From a virus (taxonomy: Duplodnaviria > Heunggongvirae > Uroviricota > Caudoviricetes): a stretch of DNA of 15,265 bases. The notes beneath the pieces are model-generated. The model saw nothing but the letters and a program-made list of their open reading frames with translations. It was not told the DNA's origin and did no database searches. Where the stretch lies: IMG/VR virus record IMGVR_UViG_2526164632_000028; one strand, written 5' to 3'. The translations under genes and the position numbers were made by a program. This document shows positions 1,419-13,306 of this stretch, piece by piece. How positions within the stretch are numbered: position 1 is the first letter of the stretch; each line of letters opens with the position of its first letter.

Positions 1419-3890
1419 TTAAAAATCAGCCTGACTCGGGATCAGTTTTTGCCAGATAACTGAAACGTATTTTGCCTGGTAACGGGCGTCATCAAGTGCA
1501 TTATGGCGCTCACCTTCGAATGGAATAGCCGTTCTGGCATCGAAGTCTATGGCTTTCCCCAGCTCAACGATTGTGCGTACATCGCGATCGTTGTAGTAAC
1601 GCCACGGGCAGGGGATCCCCTGCCGTTCGTATGAACGGCGCAAAATCGTGTTGTCGAAGTTGGCTCCATTTCCCCAGACCTGAACAAAAAATTCACCGGA
1701 GTTTTCGTCGATAAATTCCCGCAATTGTAACAGTGCATCATCTAACGGGATTTCATCGGTCATAATGGCAGATTGCGCTTCGCGTGATTGCTTAAGCCAC
1801 CATTTAATGGTGTCCCGATCAATGACTCCGCCAGCAGTTTCCAGATCGATAGTCTTACTAAATTCCGGTCCCATATCTCCGGTTTGCGGATCGAAAAATA
1901 TTGCACCTATTGAGATAATCGGGGCATCGGGATTTTTTCCCATGGTTTCAAGGTCGATCATCAGATGAATCCCCGCTCTGCTGGTGGATGTGAGATTATG
2001 ATGACCGTTCGCCTTAATTAAGGGATCTGACGCCTCGCCAGTTTCACTATCGCTGGCATGATGCTGATTGCCGCCAGTGTTCTCCTTGTGCTGATGCGCA
2101 GTGCCTTCCATTTCCTCCGGATCATTTTCCTGAACTTCAGGCTGATTCTCTCCATCGAATATTTCCTGGTATGTTGCGTCACCCATCACCGCACCACAAT
2201 CAGGGCAGTTGCCGCCACCGCTCTGACCGCAGGCGGTGCAGATCTTTTCCGGTTCCTGTTGCACTACTGGTTCAGGTTGTTTCGTTTCTGGCTCGTTTTG
2301 TTGCGTATTTGGGCTGTTTTGTTCCGCTTTCTGGTCGTTCTGTTCCGTTTCTTGCTGGTTCTGGTTCACAGAATCGCGGGTCTGGATCCCCTTAACCCAT
2401 TTCGGATCATTCGGGTCGCTAATCCCTTCAACAAATTCACCACGTGATACTGCAAGCAGTTCATCGGCGTCAGGCTGGCTGATATTGGCTGCCTGCATAA
2501 TTTTGTTTACTTCGTCAGCGGTAACTTTTACTGACCCTGGTTGTGCGGTCGTGTCAGATGCACCAGTATTTTGTTGTGAACCTGAGTATGTACCGTTTTT
2601 GCGGGCGAAATATTCTTCTTTCGTGATTTCAGTAGCCCCAGCAGACAGCGCCTTATCCAGACCAGAAAGTTTGTTTGCGCGACCGTATTTTTCGCCATCC
2701 TTGTCGGTGAAGAGGAAGTAGAACGGCCCCTCACGCTCTACAGATGGTTCAGCTTCCGGCGCGGTTTCATTTTTTGGGATATCAGATACCTCAGTTTCCA
2801 CTGCATCAGTTTGTGTTTCTGATGACTGGAGAACATCAACAGTGCCCAGGTCTGTTTCTTCATTCTCAAACACGCCCTTTGTCGTCAGGTATTCGCAGAT
2901 ATATTTGTTCAGTGCTACGGGATCTTTGTGAATGTCGATCGAACGTTCACGGACAAGGCCAAAAATAGTCTGGCGGTCGTAGCGAAGGGCATCAGGCTGT
3001 TTGCGCATTGATGCCGAGATACGCTTCCAGTCTTCGCGGCCGTTGTCGATAACTTCATTTTTTGCCCAGCGATGGATGCTGCCGTCAATGTTTCCGGCAT
3101 CCACATCACCAGGCCAGAGAGCGTAGGCCAGTTCGTCATCCAGTGTTTTCCATGTCTGCTTGTATTCGCGATGAATGGCAGCAATGACCGGGCTGATTTT
3201 TCCTGTTGAATTTTCAGTGTACTGTTGATTGGCTCTGGCGCGGGCGAGATCAACAACAGACGTGTATTTTCCGGTTTCCTTGCGTTCGCCTTCGCGACGT
3301 TTTTTCCAGATGCGCATCTCTGCCTGAATTTCGGGCCATTTAGCACCAGGAATACATTTATGCTTAACCCACCCAATGGCGTGCAACTTAAGCTCCGGAT
3401 ACATGGCGTTAACTTCTGGCATTTTCATCAACGCTTCAACGATATGTCCGTCGAATGTTGCCATGTCTTCCTGCAACAATTCCTGTGCGCTAATAACCAT
3501 ATCAACGGTGATGTTTTCACATGTGTCGAACTTAACCATGACAGCGTTCTGTACTTCAGGGGCCAGCTTGTCAAAAGTGACGTTCATCGGATAGGATTCA
3601 GTCTCAACCGGGACAAAAGAAGCAGACTCCTCATCCCAGCGGTTTTCCTGCATATATTCAGCATCCCATGAATCGAGGGCAGGGCGGGGTATGCCAGGTT
3701 TATCCTCGCAGACAATAAATTTATAAGCGCAGTCCTGAGCTGCCGGATAATGTTCCAGGAATTGCCAGTGAAATTTTGCGCGGGCGCGACATTCATCACC
3801 GGCTTCAATGGCAGTGGCTACAGCGACTGCACCTTCTTCCTTTATTGCCTGTTCGTCCGGAATGGCGGCGCAAATAAAGACTTTACTCAT
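1419..3890 (-). CDS. large prophage exonuclease: N-terminal domain of unknown function, acidic Q/E/N-rich linker with zinc ribbon, C-terminal DnaQ-like DEDDh 3'-5' exonuclease domain
   Basis: 823-aa ORF. C-terminal motifs MIDLETMG (Exo I, D-x-E), WGNGANFD (Exo II) and HNALDDARY (Exo III, H-x4-D). Central CTACGQSGGGNCPDCG zinc-ribbon motif in a low-complexity acidic linker. Sits in the lambda exo / Rac recE position; the K-12 ydfE fragment downstream of ydfD may be a truncated homologue (inference). Confidence 0.85.
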   Translation of the reverse strand: MSKVFICAAIPDEQAIKEEGAVAVATAIEAGDECRARAKFHWQFLEHYPAAQDCAYKFIVCEDKPGIPRPALDSWDAEYMQENRWDEESASFVPVETESYPMNVTFDKLAPEVQNAVMVKFDTCENITVDMVISAQELLQEDMATFDGHIVEALMKMPEVNAMYPELKLHAIGWVKHKCIPGAKWPEIQAEMRIWKKRREGERKETGKYTSVVDLARARANQQYTENSTGKISPVIAAIHREYKQTWKTLDDELAYALWPGDVDAGNIDGSIHRWAKNEVIDNGREDWKRISASMRKQPDALRYDRQTIFGLVRERSIDIHKDPVALNKYICEYLTTKGVFENEETDLGTVDVLQSSETQTDAVETEVSDIPKNETAPEAEPSVEREGPFYFLFTDKDGEKYGRANKLSGLDKALSAGATEITKEEYFARKNGTYSGSQQNTGASDTTAQPGSVKVTADEVNKIMQAANISQPDADELLAVSRGEFVEGISDPNDPKWVKGIQTRDSVNQNQQETEQNDQKAEQNSPNTQQNEPETKQPEPVVQQEPEKICTACGQSGGGNCPDCGAVMGDATYQEIFDGENQPEVQENDPEEMEGTAHQHKENTGGNQHHASDSETGEASDPLIKANGHHNLTSTSRAGIHLMIDLETMGKNPDAPIISIGAIFFDPQTGDMGPEFSKTIDLETAGGVIDRDTIKWWLKQSREAQSAIMTDEIPLDDALLQLREFIDENSGEFFVQVWGNGANFDNTILRRSYERQGIPCPWRYYNDRDVRTIVELGKAIDFDARTAIPFEGERHNALDDARYQAKYVSVIWQKLIPSQADF

Positions 3891-3982: not shown

Positions 3983-4174
3983 TTAAAGACCTGCCGGGAT
4001 TTCGTTATTATCCTGGTGAATAACTTTATCGACCGGGTAACAGTTACCGGGAATTTTCTGTTCGGTTGCTGCAGTCACACACTCCTGCATTGTCCTGTGA
4101 ACACTGACTGCAATATCAACTGGCTCTCCGGAAACAAGAAAAACTGTCAGAACAAGTGCAAATGCTGTATTCAT
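3983..4174 (-). CDS. ydfD: YdfD-like small protein with N-terminal hydrophobic segment (lysis protein family of the dicB operon)
   Basis: 63-aa ORF MNTAFALVLTVFLVSGEPVDIAVSV...NNEIPAGL. Its ATG overlaps the dicB stop (ATGA). Size, position after dicB and sequence match my recollection of Qin YdfD. The tabulated ORF (to 4228) has an unlikely 18-aa extension. Confidence 0.7.
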   Translation of the reverse strand: MNTAFALVLTVFLVSGEPVDIAVSVHRTMQECVTAATEQKIPGNCYPVDKVIHQDNNEIPAGL

Positions 4175-9875: not shown

Positions 9876-10298
9876 ATGGCAAAAGTATTTACACAAGAAG
9901 AGCGGGAAAAAATTAAAGGGCAGGTTGTTGAGCTAGTACGCCGGAGTGGGCGCGAGACGTTACGGCAACTGGAAGCCAAGACAGGTGCGACAAGATATCT
10001 GATGAGTGTTCTCGCCAGAGAGCTGGTTGCCAGTGGCGATGTATACAACTCTGGTTACGGGTTATTCCCGTCTGAACAGGCGCGTAAGGACTGGCAAAAC
10101 GCCCGCAAAAAACTCTCAAGGGCAAATCTGAAGAAACCATCTGTGGTTGATCCTGACCTTATCTGGCCATTACCAGACGGAGAAATACGCCGCTACGACA
10201 GGCGTCAAAACATAATCTGTAGCGAGTGCCGGAAGAGCGAAGCTATGCAGCGTGTACTGGCTTTCTATCAGGGTAATTTTCAGAAGGTGCTGTTGTGA
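9876..10298 (+). CDS. hypothetical protein with one winged-helix-like module related to the upstream gene
   Basis: ATG 9876 with SD GGAGG at 9866-9870 (tabulated ORF starts at TTG 9861). Motif VELVRRSGRETLRQLEAKTGATRYLMSVLARELVASGDV resembles the repeats in 9090-9860. C-terminal CSEC motif. Confidence 0.6.
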   Translation: MAKVFTQEEREKIKGQVVELVRRSGRETLRQLEAKTGATRYLMSVLARELVASGDVYNSGYGLFPSEQARKDWQNARKKLSRANLKKPSVVDPDLIWPLPDGEIRRYDRRQNIICSECRKSEAMQRVLAFYQGNFQKVLL

Positions 10299-10332
10299 GC
10301 CAAATTAACAATCGGAACTTCGTGAAGAGAAA

Positions 10333-10403
10333 GCATAATCCAAATCTGAATAATTAAGTTCAGCACTGTAAATAAAATTTAATCCTTAACTGGAGGTATA
10401 TCT
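10333..10403 (+). repeat. module-junction repeat, copy 1 (second copy at 11600-11668)
   Basis: AATCCAAATCTGAATAATTAAGTTCAGCACTGTAAATAAAATTTAATCCTTAACTGGAGGTATATCT versus AATCCAGAACTGAATAATTAAATTTAGCTCTGTTAAAAATTTAATCCTTAACCGGAGGGATTTCT, about 85% identical by eye. Copy 1 ends at the SD and ATG of ORF 10404. Confidence 0.55.
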
Positions 10404-10616
10404 ATGTCAAATACACAGAAAATTATTAACACTGAAAAATATAACGAGTGGGTGAAAAAATTCTCTGAGCAGATTTTTAAAATTACTGGCGACGAGAATG
10501 TGGCAAAAAATGAATTGGAACCGTGGACACCTGAAGGAAACGCACCAAATTATTGCTGGTGGGAGGTTGATCCGGTTGATGCTGCAAATGAAGCCATGAG
10601 TTACCACAACGATTAA
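10404..10616 (+). CDS. hypothetical small protein (70 aa), first gene of the cargo island
   Basis: ATG 10404 with SD GGAGG 7 nt upstream; MSNTQKIINTEKYNEWVKKFSEQIF...; AT-rich codon usage distinct from flanking modules. Confidence 0.55.
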   Translation: MSNTQKIINTEKYNEWVKKFSEQIFKITGDENVAKNELEPWTPEGNAPNYCWWEVDPVDAANEAMSYHND

Positions 10617-10621
10617 TGTCG

Positions 10622-10648
10622 GGAGGCCGCCCGAAAGGGCGGTAAGAA
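10622..10648 (+). promoter_or_regulatory. SD-plus-hairpin translation leader (GGAGG followed by a CCGCCC-GAAA-GGGCGG stem-loop) preceding ORF 10649
   Basis: GGAGG at 10622-10626; 6-bp GC stem with GAAA tetraloop at 10627-10642; ATG at 10649. No U-tract, so not a terminator. Near-identical 23-nt copy at 11686-11708. Confidence 0.5.
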
Positions 10649-10867
10649 ATGACTACATTATTCAGAAAAGAATATCCGCAAAAAAGTAGGGCGACAGAAT
10701 TTTTGTTTCTCATTCTGTTTATCGTATTGATGATACCGATATCCCCTCTAATTTTTGTCTGGGCAATCGGGAAAATAATTGAGCCAGTTACTGAATTGTA
10801 TAACGACGTGGTATGGGCGTCATTCAACACACTGCACAATAAAATTAATCCGTATAAGGAAAACTGA
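10649..10867 (+). CDS. hypothetical small membrane protein (72 aa, one predicted transmembrane helix)
   Basis: MTTLFRKEYPQKSRATEFLFLILFIVLMIPISPLIFVWAIGKII...; hydrophobic stretch of about 25 aa after a basic N-terminus; preceded by the SD-hairpin leader. Confidence 0.55.
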   Translation: MTTLFRKEYPQKSRATEFLFLILFIVLMIPISPLIFVWAIGKIIEPVTELYNDVVWASFNTLHNKINPYKEN

Positions 10868-10868
10868 T

Positions 10869-11132
10869 ATGGCAACTTTGACAAAAAAAGAACGGGCATG
10901 GTTGAACGAATTACAGGAAGTTCTTGATCGCTGTCCATCACCGAAAAAAATTGGCTTTTACACCATTGGCGATAAAAGCATTTACCTGTATGACCTACGC
11001 CGCATGGATGAAATCATGGAGGCTCTTGATAATCGTTCGTCGATGGATTGGTGTGTTGCTGTTCATGATATGAATGCAGGGTTTGATGAAAAGATTTTGT
11101 TCCCCTCATCAGTTGAAAGCACTGCGGGTTAA
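10869..11132 (+). CDS. hypothetical protein (87 aa)
   Basis: ATG 10869 one nt after the upstream stop, with SD AAGGAAAA; MATLTKKERAWLNELQEVLDRCPSPKKIGFYTIGDKSIYLYDLRRMDEIMEALD... Confidence 0.55.
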   Translation: MATLTKKERAWLNELQEVLDRCPSPKKIGFYTIGDKSIYLYDLRRMDEIMEALDNRSSMDWCVAVHDMNAGFDEKILFPSSVESTAG

Positions 11133-11142
11133 GGAGTAACAC

Positions 11143-11286
11143 ATGACCACTATTACCAAAGAACGTATTGAATTGTTCATTAAATTTTCAGGAGGCGGTA
11201 CTGTGAGTGAAATTAGCTATCAGGCTTCAATTACCGCTGGCATTCGCATCAAAGGAGAGGAGCATGGAAATAAAACCAGAGGATGA
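11143..11286 (+). CDS. hypothetical small protein (47 aa), overlapping the next gene
   Basis: ATG 11143 with strong SD AAGGAG 7 nt upstream; MTTITKERIELFIKFSGGGTVSEISYQASITAGIRIKGEEHGNKTRG. Overlaps ORF 11264 by 23 nt in a different frame. Confidence 0.4.
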   Translation: MTTITKERIELFIKFSGGGTVSEISYQASITAGIRIKGEEHGNKTRG

Positions 11287-11620
11287 GTTAAGCAATATCG
11301 TTTTATTTCCGGTAAAAGAGGATGACCCTCGTAATCAGGTTAATTTTCTTTATGAGCCATCGGAAAGACCATATTGTCATCACGCCTCTGTCCGGGTTGA
11401 CGAAAAAGAGCGTCAGGTCCGCTGTAAAATCTGCGGTGCAGTTGTGGAACCATTTGACTGGATGCTCTCTGTGGCGAAAAGAGAAACCAGACTGGCAGAT
11501 GATGTAAGGCTCTTGCGTCAGGAGGAGCGGGAAAGGCGAAAAAATATAGAAAAGCTAATTCAGATTGAGCGTAACGCGAAAGCGCGGATACGCAGGGCGA
11601 CAAAATCCAGAACTGAATAA
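11264..11620 (+). CDS. hypothetical zinc-finger-like protein with basic coiled-coil C-terminus (118 aa)
   Basis: ATG 11264 with SD AAGGAG (alternative GTG start at 11207). Motif YCHHASVRVDEKERQVRCKICG, then an Arg/Lys/Glu-rich tail LLRQEERERRKNIEKLIQIERNAKARIRRATKSRTE. Confidence 0.55.
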   Translation: MEIKPEDELSNIVLFPVKEDDPRNQVNFLYEPSERPYCHHASVRVDEKERQVRCKICGAVVEPFDWMLSVAKRETRLADDVRLLRQEERERRKNIEKLIQIERNAKARIRRATKSRTE

Positions 11621-11668
11621 TTAAATTTAGCTCTGTTAAAAATTTAATCCTTAACCGGAGGGATTTCT
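11600..11668 (+). repeat. module-junction repeat, copy 2
   Basis: See copy 1 at 10333-10403. Copy 2 begins within the last codons of ORF 11264-11620 and is followed by the second SD-hairpin leader. Confidence 0.55.
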
Positions 11669-11684
11669 GCACCCTCAGAACATC

Positions 11685-11713
11685 AGGAGGCCGCCCGAAA
11701 GGGCGGTAGTTAA
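11685..11713 (+). promoter_or_regulatory. SD-plus-hairpin translation leader, copy 2, preceding ORF 11714
   Basis: AGGAGG at 11685-11690; CCGCCC-GAAA-GGGCGG at 11691-11706; ATG at 11714. Confidence 0.5.
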
Positions 11714-11896
11714 ATGCGAAAGTTTAAAATAATTATTGAAACGGGAATAGCCGGTGGAGATTTCGAGGATGAATTCGAAGTGGATGATGATGCGACGCCT
11801 GATGAAATACATGACGAAGCAAAAGATATTTTCTTTAACTACTGCAATTACTCATATCACGAAATAAAAGACGAAGAGGAAGAACAAAATGGCTGA
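11714..11896 (+). CDS. hypothetical highly acidic small protein (60 aa)
   Basis: MRKFKIIIETGIAGGDFEDEFEVDDDATPDEIHDEAKDIFFNYCNYSYHEIKDEEEEQNG, Asp/Glu-rich; preceded by the SD-hairpin leader. Confidence 0.5.
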   Translation: MRKFKIIIETGIAGGDFEDEFEVDDDATPDEIHDEAKDIFFNYCNYSYHEIKDEEEEQNG

Positions 11897-12065
11897 TTTT
11901 GGTTCAACTAAATACAACGTCGGTTTTGAAGAATGGCATGAACTGTTAATGGACTATGCAGAGTTACGTGGTGGCAGTGCTGCTGATGCTGAAGCATGGC
12001 GTGATGATTATGAAGCAGGAAAAACTCCGGTCGAAGCATATTGTGATGAGTGGGGCGATGAATGA
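11889..12065 (+). CDS. hypothetical acidic small protein (58 aa)
   Basis: ATG 11889 lies 5 nt before the upstream stop (ATGGCTGA); MADFGSTKYNVGFEEWHELLMDYAELRGGSAADAEAWRDDYEAGKTPVEAYCDEWGDE. Confidence 0.5.
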   Translation: MADFGSTKYNVGFEEWHELLMDYAELRGGSAADAEAWRDDYEAGKTPVEAYCDEWGDE

Positions 12066-12377
12066 GCGAGGTTAATTATCAGGAAGGGCATGAAACGGCG
12101 GGGCAAGCAAAAACAGTGGCATGGCGATATCGCTACGTGAAAAAAAGGCGTTACGGACTTTCAGGGGAAGTAGTGGTCTGGTGACTGGAAATATGTACCG
12201 AAAAAAGAGGATTGTAACGACAGGCCGAACTATGAAATTCAGGCCTTATTCACTGCCCCGCCAGTCCCGGTTACATCAGAAGAACTGGTTAAAGCTGTGC
12301 ACTTTTATGAACAACTAAAATGCGAAAATCCACCAGCATCCGGAAACCTGATTACAGATTCCCAGATAAGGCAATGA
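12062..12377 (+). pseudogene. hypothetical gene apparently split by a +1 frameshift near 12174-12184
   Basis: ATG 12062 overlaps the upstream stop (ATGA); frame gives MSEVNYQEGHETAGQAKTVAWRYRYVKKRRYGLSGEVVVW then TGA at 12182-12184. The +1 frame is open from 12174 to 12377 with protein-like content (...DWKYVPKKEDCNDRPNYEIQALFTAPPVPVTSEELVKAVHFYEQLKCENPPASGNLITDSQIRQ) but no start codon. Confidence 0.35.
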
Positions 12378-12547
12378 GCTACCTGGCGCAGAACGGGCTG
12401 ATAAGTATGGGGAATGTTTTACGATGAATATTTAGACTAAAGAGTTTGTAACGCTATGTAAGTGATTTTTTCTGGTTTAGATATTTATATGTCCGGCTAA
12501 ATTGAGGTGTGTTTAAATGTTATTGCACATTGATTGTAGGGGGAATA

Positions 12548-12685
12548 ATGAAAAACGCATTGCAGTTTTTGTTTGTTGCGTTCTGGTTGTTCGCATCATG
12601 TATGCCCATCATCTTCACAGCAAGGTATATGGAAAAAGTTGATGTTTTGATATTAATGTTTGGACATATAAATGCCCTTTTTTAG
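12548..12685 (+). CDS. hypothetical 45-aa hydrophobic peptide (candidate small membrane protein or toxin)
   Basis: ATG 12548 with SD AGGGGG 5-8 nt upstream; MKNALQFLFVAFWLFASCMPIIFTARYMEKVDVLILMFGHINALF. Below the 60-aa cutoff of the ORF table. In an AT-rich intergenic stretch upstream of the hok locus. Confidence 0.4.
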   Translation: MKNALQFLFVAFWLFASCMPIIFTARYMEKVDVLILMFGHINALF

Positions 12686-12928
12686 GGGTGTTCATGGCGG
12701 TCATGTGCATTGAATACTGGCGGTAAATACAGCGAACGCCATTGGTTTAGTTGGATATTTACTGTGCCGGACAAAAACGGTTTGCGGGGAAATCTTAGTT
12801 AAGTAGAATGACTGCGGGTGCTTGAGGCTATCTGTCTCAGGCATGAACACCAAAAGGCAGATAGAGAAAAGCCCCAGTTAACATTACGCGTCCTGCAAGA
12901 CGCTTAACATTAATCTGAGGCCATATCT

Positions 12929-12988
12929 ATGCGACACATAGAGATTAGCCTCTTACGGACCGAAAGGTCAAGGAGAAGCAGGCTATGA
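12929..12988 (+). CDS. mok-like leader ORF coupled to hok (19 codons)
   Basis: ATG 12929 with SD GAGG 9 nt upstream; MRHIEISLLRTERSRRSRL; its TGA (12986-12988) overlaps the hok ATG (12985-12987). Confidence 0.4.
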   Translation: MRHIEISLLRTERSRRSRL

Positions 12989-13140
12989 AGCAGCAAAAGG
13001 CGATGTTAATCGCCCTGATCGTCATCTGTTTAACCGTCATAGTGACGGCACTGGTAACGAGGAAAGACCTCTGCGAGGTACGAATCCGAACCGGCCAGAC
13101 GGAGGTCGCTGTCTTCACAGCTTACGAACCTGAGGAGTAA
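12985..13140 (+). CDS. hokD: Hok-family type I toxin (HokD/RelF-like)
   Basis: 51-aa ORF MKQQKAMLIALIVICLTVIVTALVTRKDLCEVRIRTGQTEVAVFTAYEPEE, recognised as Hok/Gef family. Followed by a 9-bp-stem GAAA hairpin (13148-13169) and a terminator. In Qin, hokD lies next to rem and ydfU, as here. Confidence 0.85.
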   Translation: MKQQKAMLIALIVICLTVIVTALVTRKDLCEVRIRTGQTEVAVFTAYEPEE

Positions 13141-13210
13141 GAGACCAGGCGAGGGAGAAATCCCTCGCCACCTCTGATGAGTCAGGCATCCTCAACGCAC
13201 CCGCACTTAA

Positions 13211-13234
13211 CCCGCTTCGGCGGGTTTTGTTTTT
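13211..13234 (+). terminator. rho-independent terminator of the hok transcript
   Basis: CCCGC-ttcg-GCGGG stem-loop followed by TTTTGTTTTT. Confidence 0.65.
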
Positions 13235-13306
13235 CCTGGCATTCTGGTTTACAATTCGCACGTCAGCCTGAACACCTGACACCTGCTGCGCCAGCAGAGA
13301 AAACAG

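Follow-up and report, generated by a model that had tools for sequence, protein, structure and literature searches.

Introduction

A short open reading frame lies just upstream of the hok locus in a stretch of Caudoviricetes DNA, and the question it raises is whether it encodes a protein and, if so, of what length and kind. The DNA analysed, here called the window, is 15,265 nt long (IMG/VR record IMGVR_UViG_2526164632_000028). A preliminary description had pointed to an unannotated gene for a 45-aa hydrophobic peptide with a strong ribosome-binding site, and had noted that small hydrophobic peptides in such positions are frequently type I toxins or membrane-acting phage factors. We argue here that the window very probably carries a frameshifted copy of a real, uncharacterised gene of 59 codons, which we call ORF59.

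Results

A short reading frame in an AT-rich stretch upstream of hokD

Both the reading frame and the AGGGGG Shine-Dalgarno-like sequence described earlier are present in the window (Table 1). The frame runs from an ATG at 12548 to a TAG at 12683-12685 and is translated as MKNALQFLFVAFWLFASCMPIIFTARYMEKVDVLILMFGHINALF. The duplex of AGGGGG with the 3' end of 16S rRNA (ACCUCCUUA) was calculated at -9.3 kcal/mol, within the top 2.5% among the 562 ATGs of the window, and a G-to-A change at 12541 turns the motif into the consensus AGGAGG in 10 of 88 related loci. The stretch is AT-rich, as had been stated, with a GC content of 35.5% across 12430-12730 compared to 47.4% for the whole window, and it lies where it had been placed, upstream of a hok/sok locus that is complete.

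Table 1 Features of the ORF59-hokD region, in window coordinates
Feature	Position	Strand	Description
AT-rich upstream spacer	12430-12547	+	Kept with the ORF in the mosaic block; aligns to the sequence upstream of the paralogue at ~60% identity with several indels
Shine-Dalgarno-like AGGGGG	12538-12543	+	4 nt upstream of ATG 12548
Truncated ORF59 allele (45 aa)	12548-12685	+	Predicted helix 1, loop, first 13 residues of helix 2, premature TAG
T6 homopolymer, -1 frameshift site	12678-12683	+	T7 in nearly all relatives (alignment, census)
Out-of-frame remainder	12684-12726	+	Codons 46-59 (LGVFMAVMCIEYWR) and TAA 12724-12726
hok mRNA leader with sok/mok region	12816-12987	+	Rfam RF01794, full-length model, 106.7 bits
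hokD CDS (51 aa)	12985-13140	+	ORF table; annotated hokD in relatives; 98% identical to K-12 hokD DNA
hok terminator	13209-13226		

The length of the frame is by itself not beyond chance. In first-order Markov sequences of the same composition, an ATG-initiated ORF of at least 45 codons arose in 45% of random trials and one of at least 59 codons in 18%; hydrophobic residues (F, L, I and V) follow automatically from T-rich DNA. These observations would fit a chance ORF, in which T-rich and AT-rich non-coding DNA separating the hok promoter from the upstream gene happens to stay open and yields no protein, as would the lack of a PGAP call and of a sigma-70 promoter of its own at the scan threshold in the window. 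The scan likewise gave no terminator belonging to the ORF.

The ORF is unannotated in RefSeq/PGAP, as had been claimed, but not in GenBank and UniProt, where entries for the 59-aa protein are named 'hypothetical' or 'membrane protein' (A0A0J2DWW3, A0A376M8H7, ASX06504.1). The exact 45-aa peptide is listed too, under EHX35788.1 from E. coli DEC12C, the one contig that carries it. These entries occupy the same position upstream of hokD in lambdoid prophages and are identical over residues 1-45, and none of them comes with an assigned family, a function or a paper. Having T6 in place of T7, the window copy is 14 residues shorter at its C-terminus than the 59-aa entries. The sequence is therefore already deposited in GenBank/UniProt, and as a family ORF59 is undescribed and carries no RefSeq annotation.

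The window copy is one T shorter than its relatives

The proposed gene length of 45 aa did not hold. DNA matching this region at 95% identity or more was found in 1570 of 5426 complete E. coli genomes, and each aligned copy was one base longer than the window. We took a census of the T run with exact-match 72-74-nt probes on the 1568 complete E. coli records carrying the region: 1542 matched T7 exactly, no more than 2 matched T6 and no more than 5 matched T8. With one T restored the frame reads on as ...HINALFLGVFMAVMCIEYWR to the TAA at window 12724-12726, a product of 59 aa whose two main alleles are each found on at least 1000 contigs; residues 1-45 of the window peptide are identical to the common 59-aa allele. 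The end at residue 45 is thus an artefact of the T6 run where relatives have T7, and the 45-aa form is a -1 frameshift allele of a gene whose native product has 59 aa. Where conservation of the reading frame in homologous regions was looked at, the 59-aa frame was kept and the 45-aa frame lost.

The TAG after codon 45 removes from the window the full 59-codon frame through G47 and E56-x-W58-R59, conserved residues that are still encoded in the out-of-frame remainder. Because it ends within helix 2, of which half is gone, and has lost the conserved E-x-W-R at the C-terminus, the window copy is probably inactive; the alternative is that the missing T reflects a homopolymer sequencing error. Comparable -1 events occur on other allelic backgrounds (P0052, P0054), indicating that the T was lost, or was mis-sequenced, more than once. 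The window and its closest relative differ at 8 positions over 10181-13295, 4 of which are 1-nt homopolymer indels, making a sequencing error in the window copy a live possibility.

Other 1-nt homopolymer length differences from the nearest relative were seen at window 10455, 10944 and 13229. At the first two, PGAP marks the relative, not the window, as frameshifted, and the third shortens the T tail on the hok terminator; together, these differences suggest sequencing errors in one or both assemblies.

T7 copies read CTT TTT TTA in frame (window 12674-12686), a slippery heptamer of the U UUU UUA type, and the -1 frame of the tract leads to a 55-aa product ending FFRGVHGGHVH, as encoded by T8 alleles (P0020, P0057). 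A programmed role of the tract is unlikely because the tract is missing from the diverged paralogue described below. Several of the alleles P0030-P0035 from other genomes are broken after about codon 25-28 by foreign sequence, which in P0030 continues into what we take to be an IS911/IS3-family end (...MKKRNFSAE-like). On these sequences the AT-rich ORF59 appears to be an insertion or recombination hotspot.

A diverged paralogue points to a protein-coding family

An exhaustive HMMER search of 1.84 billion cluster representatives returned a single distant relative, P0061/P0066, which is also 59 aa long and aligns from residue 1 to 59 with residues 1-59 of ORF59 (E = 2e-8). The common form of this paralogue, P0066 (MRKILMYLC...IECWR; MRKILMYLCISIWIVISCVPIILTSEYLTEASIMALMFGHANALCIGVFISIIYIECWR), was found in 1045 of the 5426 complete E. 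coli genomes and on 1000 contigs or more, and is likewise without PGAP annotation. It lies in a decayed prophage remnant between ttcA and uspF, in the Rac attachment region, in E. coli 536, ATCC 11775 and ~1000 other complete genomes. P0066 resembles ORF59 in its length, start and stop positions and motifs, in the DUF1627 fragment upstream and in the hok sequence downstream; it differs in its chromosomal decayed setting, in its dead hok, in having no T7 tract and in a weaker Shine-Dalgarno sequence (AGGGA, 6 nt before the ATG, -4.8 kcal/mol).

The proteins are 39-44% identical and the coding sequences differ at 71 of 180 nt with zero indels, with ATG and TAA at matching codons and with differences distributed 24/17/30 over the three codon positions. 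Every other frame has stops in one or both of the two sequences, and the flanks are recognisably homologous but require many gaps for alignment. We found pN of 0.32, pS of 0.72 and dN/dS of ~0.17, a coding signal that comes from one deep comparison with saturated synonymous sites since there are just two subfamilies, both in one species.

We then placed the observed substitutions at random positions and counted how often each feature was retained. Start, open frame and stop were all preserved in 0.5% of random trials, an amino-acid identity of at least 26/59 was reached in 0.3%, and the two coincided in a fraction of 4.5e-5; agreement in hydrophobic class at 52 or more of 59 positions occurred in a fraction of 4e-5. 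The joint randomisation result together with the dN/dS value supports the hypothesis that ORF59 is a genuine protein-coding family, which we regard as highly likely from the sequence comparison. A chance ORF would also have to account for a paralogue that at 39% nucleotide divergence still has exactly 59 codons between matching start and stop codons, without a single indel and with flanks rich in indels on either side, and for the strong Shine-Dalgarno sequence; we consider it an unlikely explanation.

Sixteen residues are invariant in both subfamilies (W13, S17, C18, P20, I21, I22, T24, L36, F38, G39, N42, A43, L44, E56, W58 and R59) and fall into the shared motifs W13, S17-C18-x-P20-I21-I22-x-T24, L36-x-F38-G39-(H/Y)40-x-N42-A-L44 and E56-x-W58-R59. 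The window peptide retains the N-terminal helix with the first two of these, all invariant alignment columns.

A GTG at 12509 was considered as an alternative start and rejected. It would add a 13-codon upstream extension, and some GenBank entries list such 58- or 72-aa forms. The paralogue does not share the extension and has an in-frame TGA two codons 5' of its ATG, so ATG 12548 is taken as the true start.

The paralogue also bears on a gene proposed for the opposite strand. In phage GenBank records ON470612, ON470619 and PV340562 an 83-aa minus-strand ORF, named 'hornerin' or hypothetical, is annotated over ORF59, and reverse frame 2 contains 0 stops in T7 copies. The same frame has 2 stops in the paralogue, with an identity of only 18/58, is broken in the window into pieces of 31 and 32 aa, and runs opposite to all neighbouring genes. 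The stops and the broken frame make the 'hornerin' annotation almost certainly spurious, and the chance that the minus-strand ORF is the real gene is close to nil. This ORF lies at 2555-2806 (-) in both L003 and L004, two of the compared loci, equivalent to window ~12454-12704 (-).

Polymorphism within the two subfamilies

Within the window subfamily, 87 loci contained six polymorphic sites in the ORF, 6 non-synonymous and 0 synonymous, with conservative replacements (V31I, M38I, H41Y, M53T, A17V, V48G). As all six are non-synonymous, there is no sign of recent purifying selection in this subfamily, an observation in line with a chance ORF. For the paralogue, ten loci were picked without regard to the ORF; the frame was kept in all ten, with indels in the flanks, and the ORF was not significantly poor in SNPs (3 of 45 SNP sites, P = 0.15). 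From these alignments the coding signal reads as a long-term one, with recent selection not demonstrated. Locus L087, which is divergent (70% identity) and has several 1-nt deletions, was left out as evidence because it may be an error-rich assembly.

A His40/Tyr40 polymorphism (CAT/TAT) arises independently in both subfamilies, at window 12665 and at position 4118 of the paralogue locus L096. The site sits within the conserved FG(H/Y)xNAL motif in helix 2.

A predicted membrane hairpin of two helices

The 59-aa form has two hydrophobic segments with Kyte-Doolittle 19-residue means of ~2.1. AlphaFold, run on the single sequence, placed helices at residues 3-24 and 31-58 (pLDDT 82.8) with a polar loop, TARYMEKVD, between them. 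The 59-aa product is thus predicted by this model to be a two-helix membrane hairpin, and by the positive-inside rule both ends would face the cytoplasm. The earlier description of a hydrophobic peptide compatible with a membrane helix was right in that the product is small, hydrophobic and predicted to be membrane-embedded; the real form has two helices and 59 aa, whereas the 45-aa form has one complete hydrophobic helix and only 13 residues of the second.

Searches for known families returned little. No family was found at E ≤ 10 in Pfam, toxin and holin families included, or in PADLOC; NCBIfam gave nothing above its cut-off, with the paralogue sub-threshold to TIGR03647 (14.5 bits vs 26); PHROGs and PDB sequences gave no usable match. 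A Foldseek search of the AlphaFold hairpin against viral structures gave nothing at E ≤ 0.001, with generic hairpins of uncharacterised phage membrane proteins only. The literature, searched by peptide sequence, accession and topic, yielded no paper naming the ORF59 sequence or its accessions, and the supplements of the Sakai Ribo-seq small-gene paper do not mention it.

Protein searches using a word index returned E. coli/Shigella sequences only, near-identical ones when the 59-aa form was the query, and no third subfamily emerged when the paralogue or a profile built from the two was used instead. When a single genome was scanned for each of 185,579 species, matches were confined to Shigella/E. 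coli records, so that two subfamilies in E. coli/Shigella make up the family as found. ORF59 occurs in phages that had been isolated or induced, as well as in at least 185 IMG/VR contigs; tblastn/blastn against 50,697 phage records matched three E. coli phages only.

Two classes of known proteins invite comparison. Like Hok/Gef (PF01848) and other small membrane toxins, ORF59 would be a small hydrophobic inner-membrane peptide encoded by a prophage, and GhoT, with two helices and 57 aa, is comparable in size and helix count. ORF59 has no sequence match to Hok/Gef or GhoT/OrtT models in Pfam (E ≤ 10), NCBIfam or PADLOC and, unlike known small toxins, was found with neither an antisense RNA nor a protein antitoxin partner. 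Class II holins and pinholins of lambdoid phages (S21 68) are likewise phage-encoded two-helix hairpins with both ends predicted inside, the two transmembrane helices being predicted for the 59-aa form of ORF59 only. Unlike these holins, ORF59 lies upstream of Q and outside the lysis cassette, has no dual start, ends in a C-terminus of 4 residues (EYWR) in place of a charged tail, and matches no holin family in PHROGs or Pfam.

ORF59 and hok/sok share a mosaic block

ORF59 lies on the hok strand just 5' of hok in the early-right region, between replication genes and the Q antiterminator, of E. coli/Shigella lambdoid prophages. It is upstream of rem, a DUF968 gene, rusA and the antiterminator, in the same orientation as its neighbours. 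Among 87 loci carrying ORF59, the homology block usually extends from ~12300-12399 to ~13200-13249, taking in ORF59, hok/sok and, on the left, the 3' end of the gene upstream; its left edge falls within ~12300-12399 in 68 of the 87, and hok lies ~258 nt downstream of ORF59 in 74.

The absence of relBE compared to Qin, noted in the preliminary description, was confirmed. K-12 Qin is homologous to the window only from 12971 on, and relBE there takes the place of both the hok leader and the ORF59 region. Since the leader with sok, the CDS and the terminator are all complete in the window, compared to the part from 12971 only in K-12 Qin, the window shows the hokD locus in its ancestral and probably self-regulated state. 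A paper on strain LF82 describes hokD as a highly expressed moron in prophage Tritos.

At the other locus, between ttcA and uspF, the remnant comprises fragments of an integrase gene, a DUF1627 gene and hok, a broken gene for an ABC permease and, intact, the 59-aa ORF. DUF1627 is likewise found upstream in the relatives of the window. The hok fragment is 80% identical to window 13053-13118 (66 nt) and has an in-frame stop. Because hok adjoins both diverged copies, the pairing of ORF59 with hok is older than the subfamily split. Across the ttcA-uspF interval (L088 3000-5300) the annotated pieces are all pseudogenes (integrase, DUF1627, metal ABC permease), and the unannotated 59-aa ORF is intact in 10 of 10 genomes sampled.

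This pairing, the mosaic boundaries common to ORF59 and hok in most of the 87 loci and the constant spacing would fit a partnership in which ORF59 acts with the adjacent hok/sok, for example by modulating Hok or protecting against it, and which would account for joint inheritance as one block in both subfamilies. The linkage may be inherited synteny only. The GC content of ORF59 (39%) compared to the hok locus (52%) suggests separate origins, the paralogue locus keeps ORF59 intact beside a dead hok, and K-12 has hokD present without ORF59. The classical hok/sok of plasmid R1 is not known to require such a partner, which also counts against this reading, and we give a Hok partnership little credence.

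The gene just upstream (12062-12427) is split in the window into pieces of 40, 65 and 35 aa. It is a pseudogene in the closest relative, frameshifted with an internal stop, and intact in strain Eco889, where it encodes a 104-aa hypothetical protein (WP_001529162.1). A 90-nt segment near this gene is missing in many loci, the window included. On the other side, just 5' of the rem-like gene, Rfam gave a sub-threshold match to isrK, an Hfq-binding RNA of the Gifsy-1 prophage (27.8 bits; gathering score, 50), at 13149-13230, where it overlaps the terminator and 3' end of the hok transcript.

Expression signals do not favor a type I toxin

The preliminary description had proposed a type I toxin candidate. 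ORF59 would then depolarise the membrane and be silenced by a cis-encoded antisense RNA, forming a second TA module beside hok/sok, a picture consistent with a small, hydrophobic, prophage-borne product next to another type I locus and with the presence of another TA pair, relBE, at the corresponding position in K-12. An antisense RNA was looked for: the window scan revealed neither promoter-like nor terminator-like sites on the minus strand of the ORF and its surroundings (12430-12815), Rfam had no match over this interval, and antisense promoter-like sites of the paralogue, compared by eye, were not conserved at the matching window positions. The lack of any toxin family match in Pfam, NCBIfam and PADLOC also speaks against a toxin, as do the two helices with conserved polar motifs, compared to the single helix usual in type I toxins, and a paralogue that stays intact in ~1000 genomes with no recognisable partner. 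A type I toxin therefore appears quite improbable. The broader term used in the same description, a membrane-acting phage factor, is the best general description in view of the coding constraint and the predicted membrane embedding, once it is applied to a 59-aa gene product with two helices.

Discussion

The evidence combines into the following proposal for ORF59 as a coding gene. It would encode a small inner-membrane helical hairpin (helix 1 ~3-24, a loop, helix 2 ~31-58) from within the mosaic block, ~12330-13240, that it shares with hok/sok. Transcription would most likely come from read-through of the early-right operon in lytic growth, and translation from ORF59's own strong Shine-Dalgarno sequence. 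The protein would insert in the inner membrane and act via its conserved intramembrane polar and small residues (those of the W13, S17-T24 and L36-L44 motifs), perhaps, as a guess, by associating with itself or with a membrane protein of the host or the phage. In the window copy, the change from T7 to T6 would stop translation at codon 45. Our best guess, inferred from position and predicted fold, is a small accessory protein of the inner membrane, encoded in the phage early-right region.

A more far-reaching idea, which we regard as a long shot, is that ORF59 is a third protein component or companion of prophage hok/sok. As an inner-membrane protein with two helices it would modulate Hok, exploit its action or bring the host some other benefit. 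Once the remainder of the prophage had decayed, hok with it, ORF59 would have been kept intact on the chromosome of about one in five E. coli strains, and the T7 tract would allow on/off switching or a 55-aa isoform.

Annotations should enter the 45-aa ORF as a frameshifted allele, unless a check reveals a homopolymer error, and should not present it as a new 45-aa toxin. The window also supplies an intact reference for the ancestral hokD locus, lost in K-12 to relBE. The fixed place of ORF59 beside hok/sok raises the question of cooperation between ORF59 and Hok. For the biology of E. coli, the finding points to a conserved small membrane protein gene that is missing from RefSeq, with the hok-linked copy in ~29% of complete genomes and the ttcA-uspF paralogue in ~19%, and ORF59 joins the small membrane proteins of phages, a growing set, as a candidate that can be tested.
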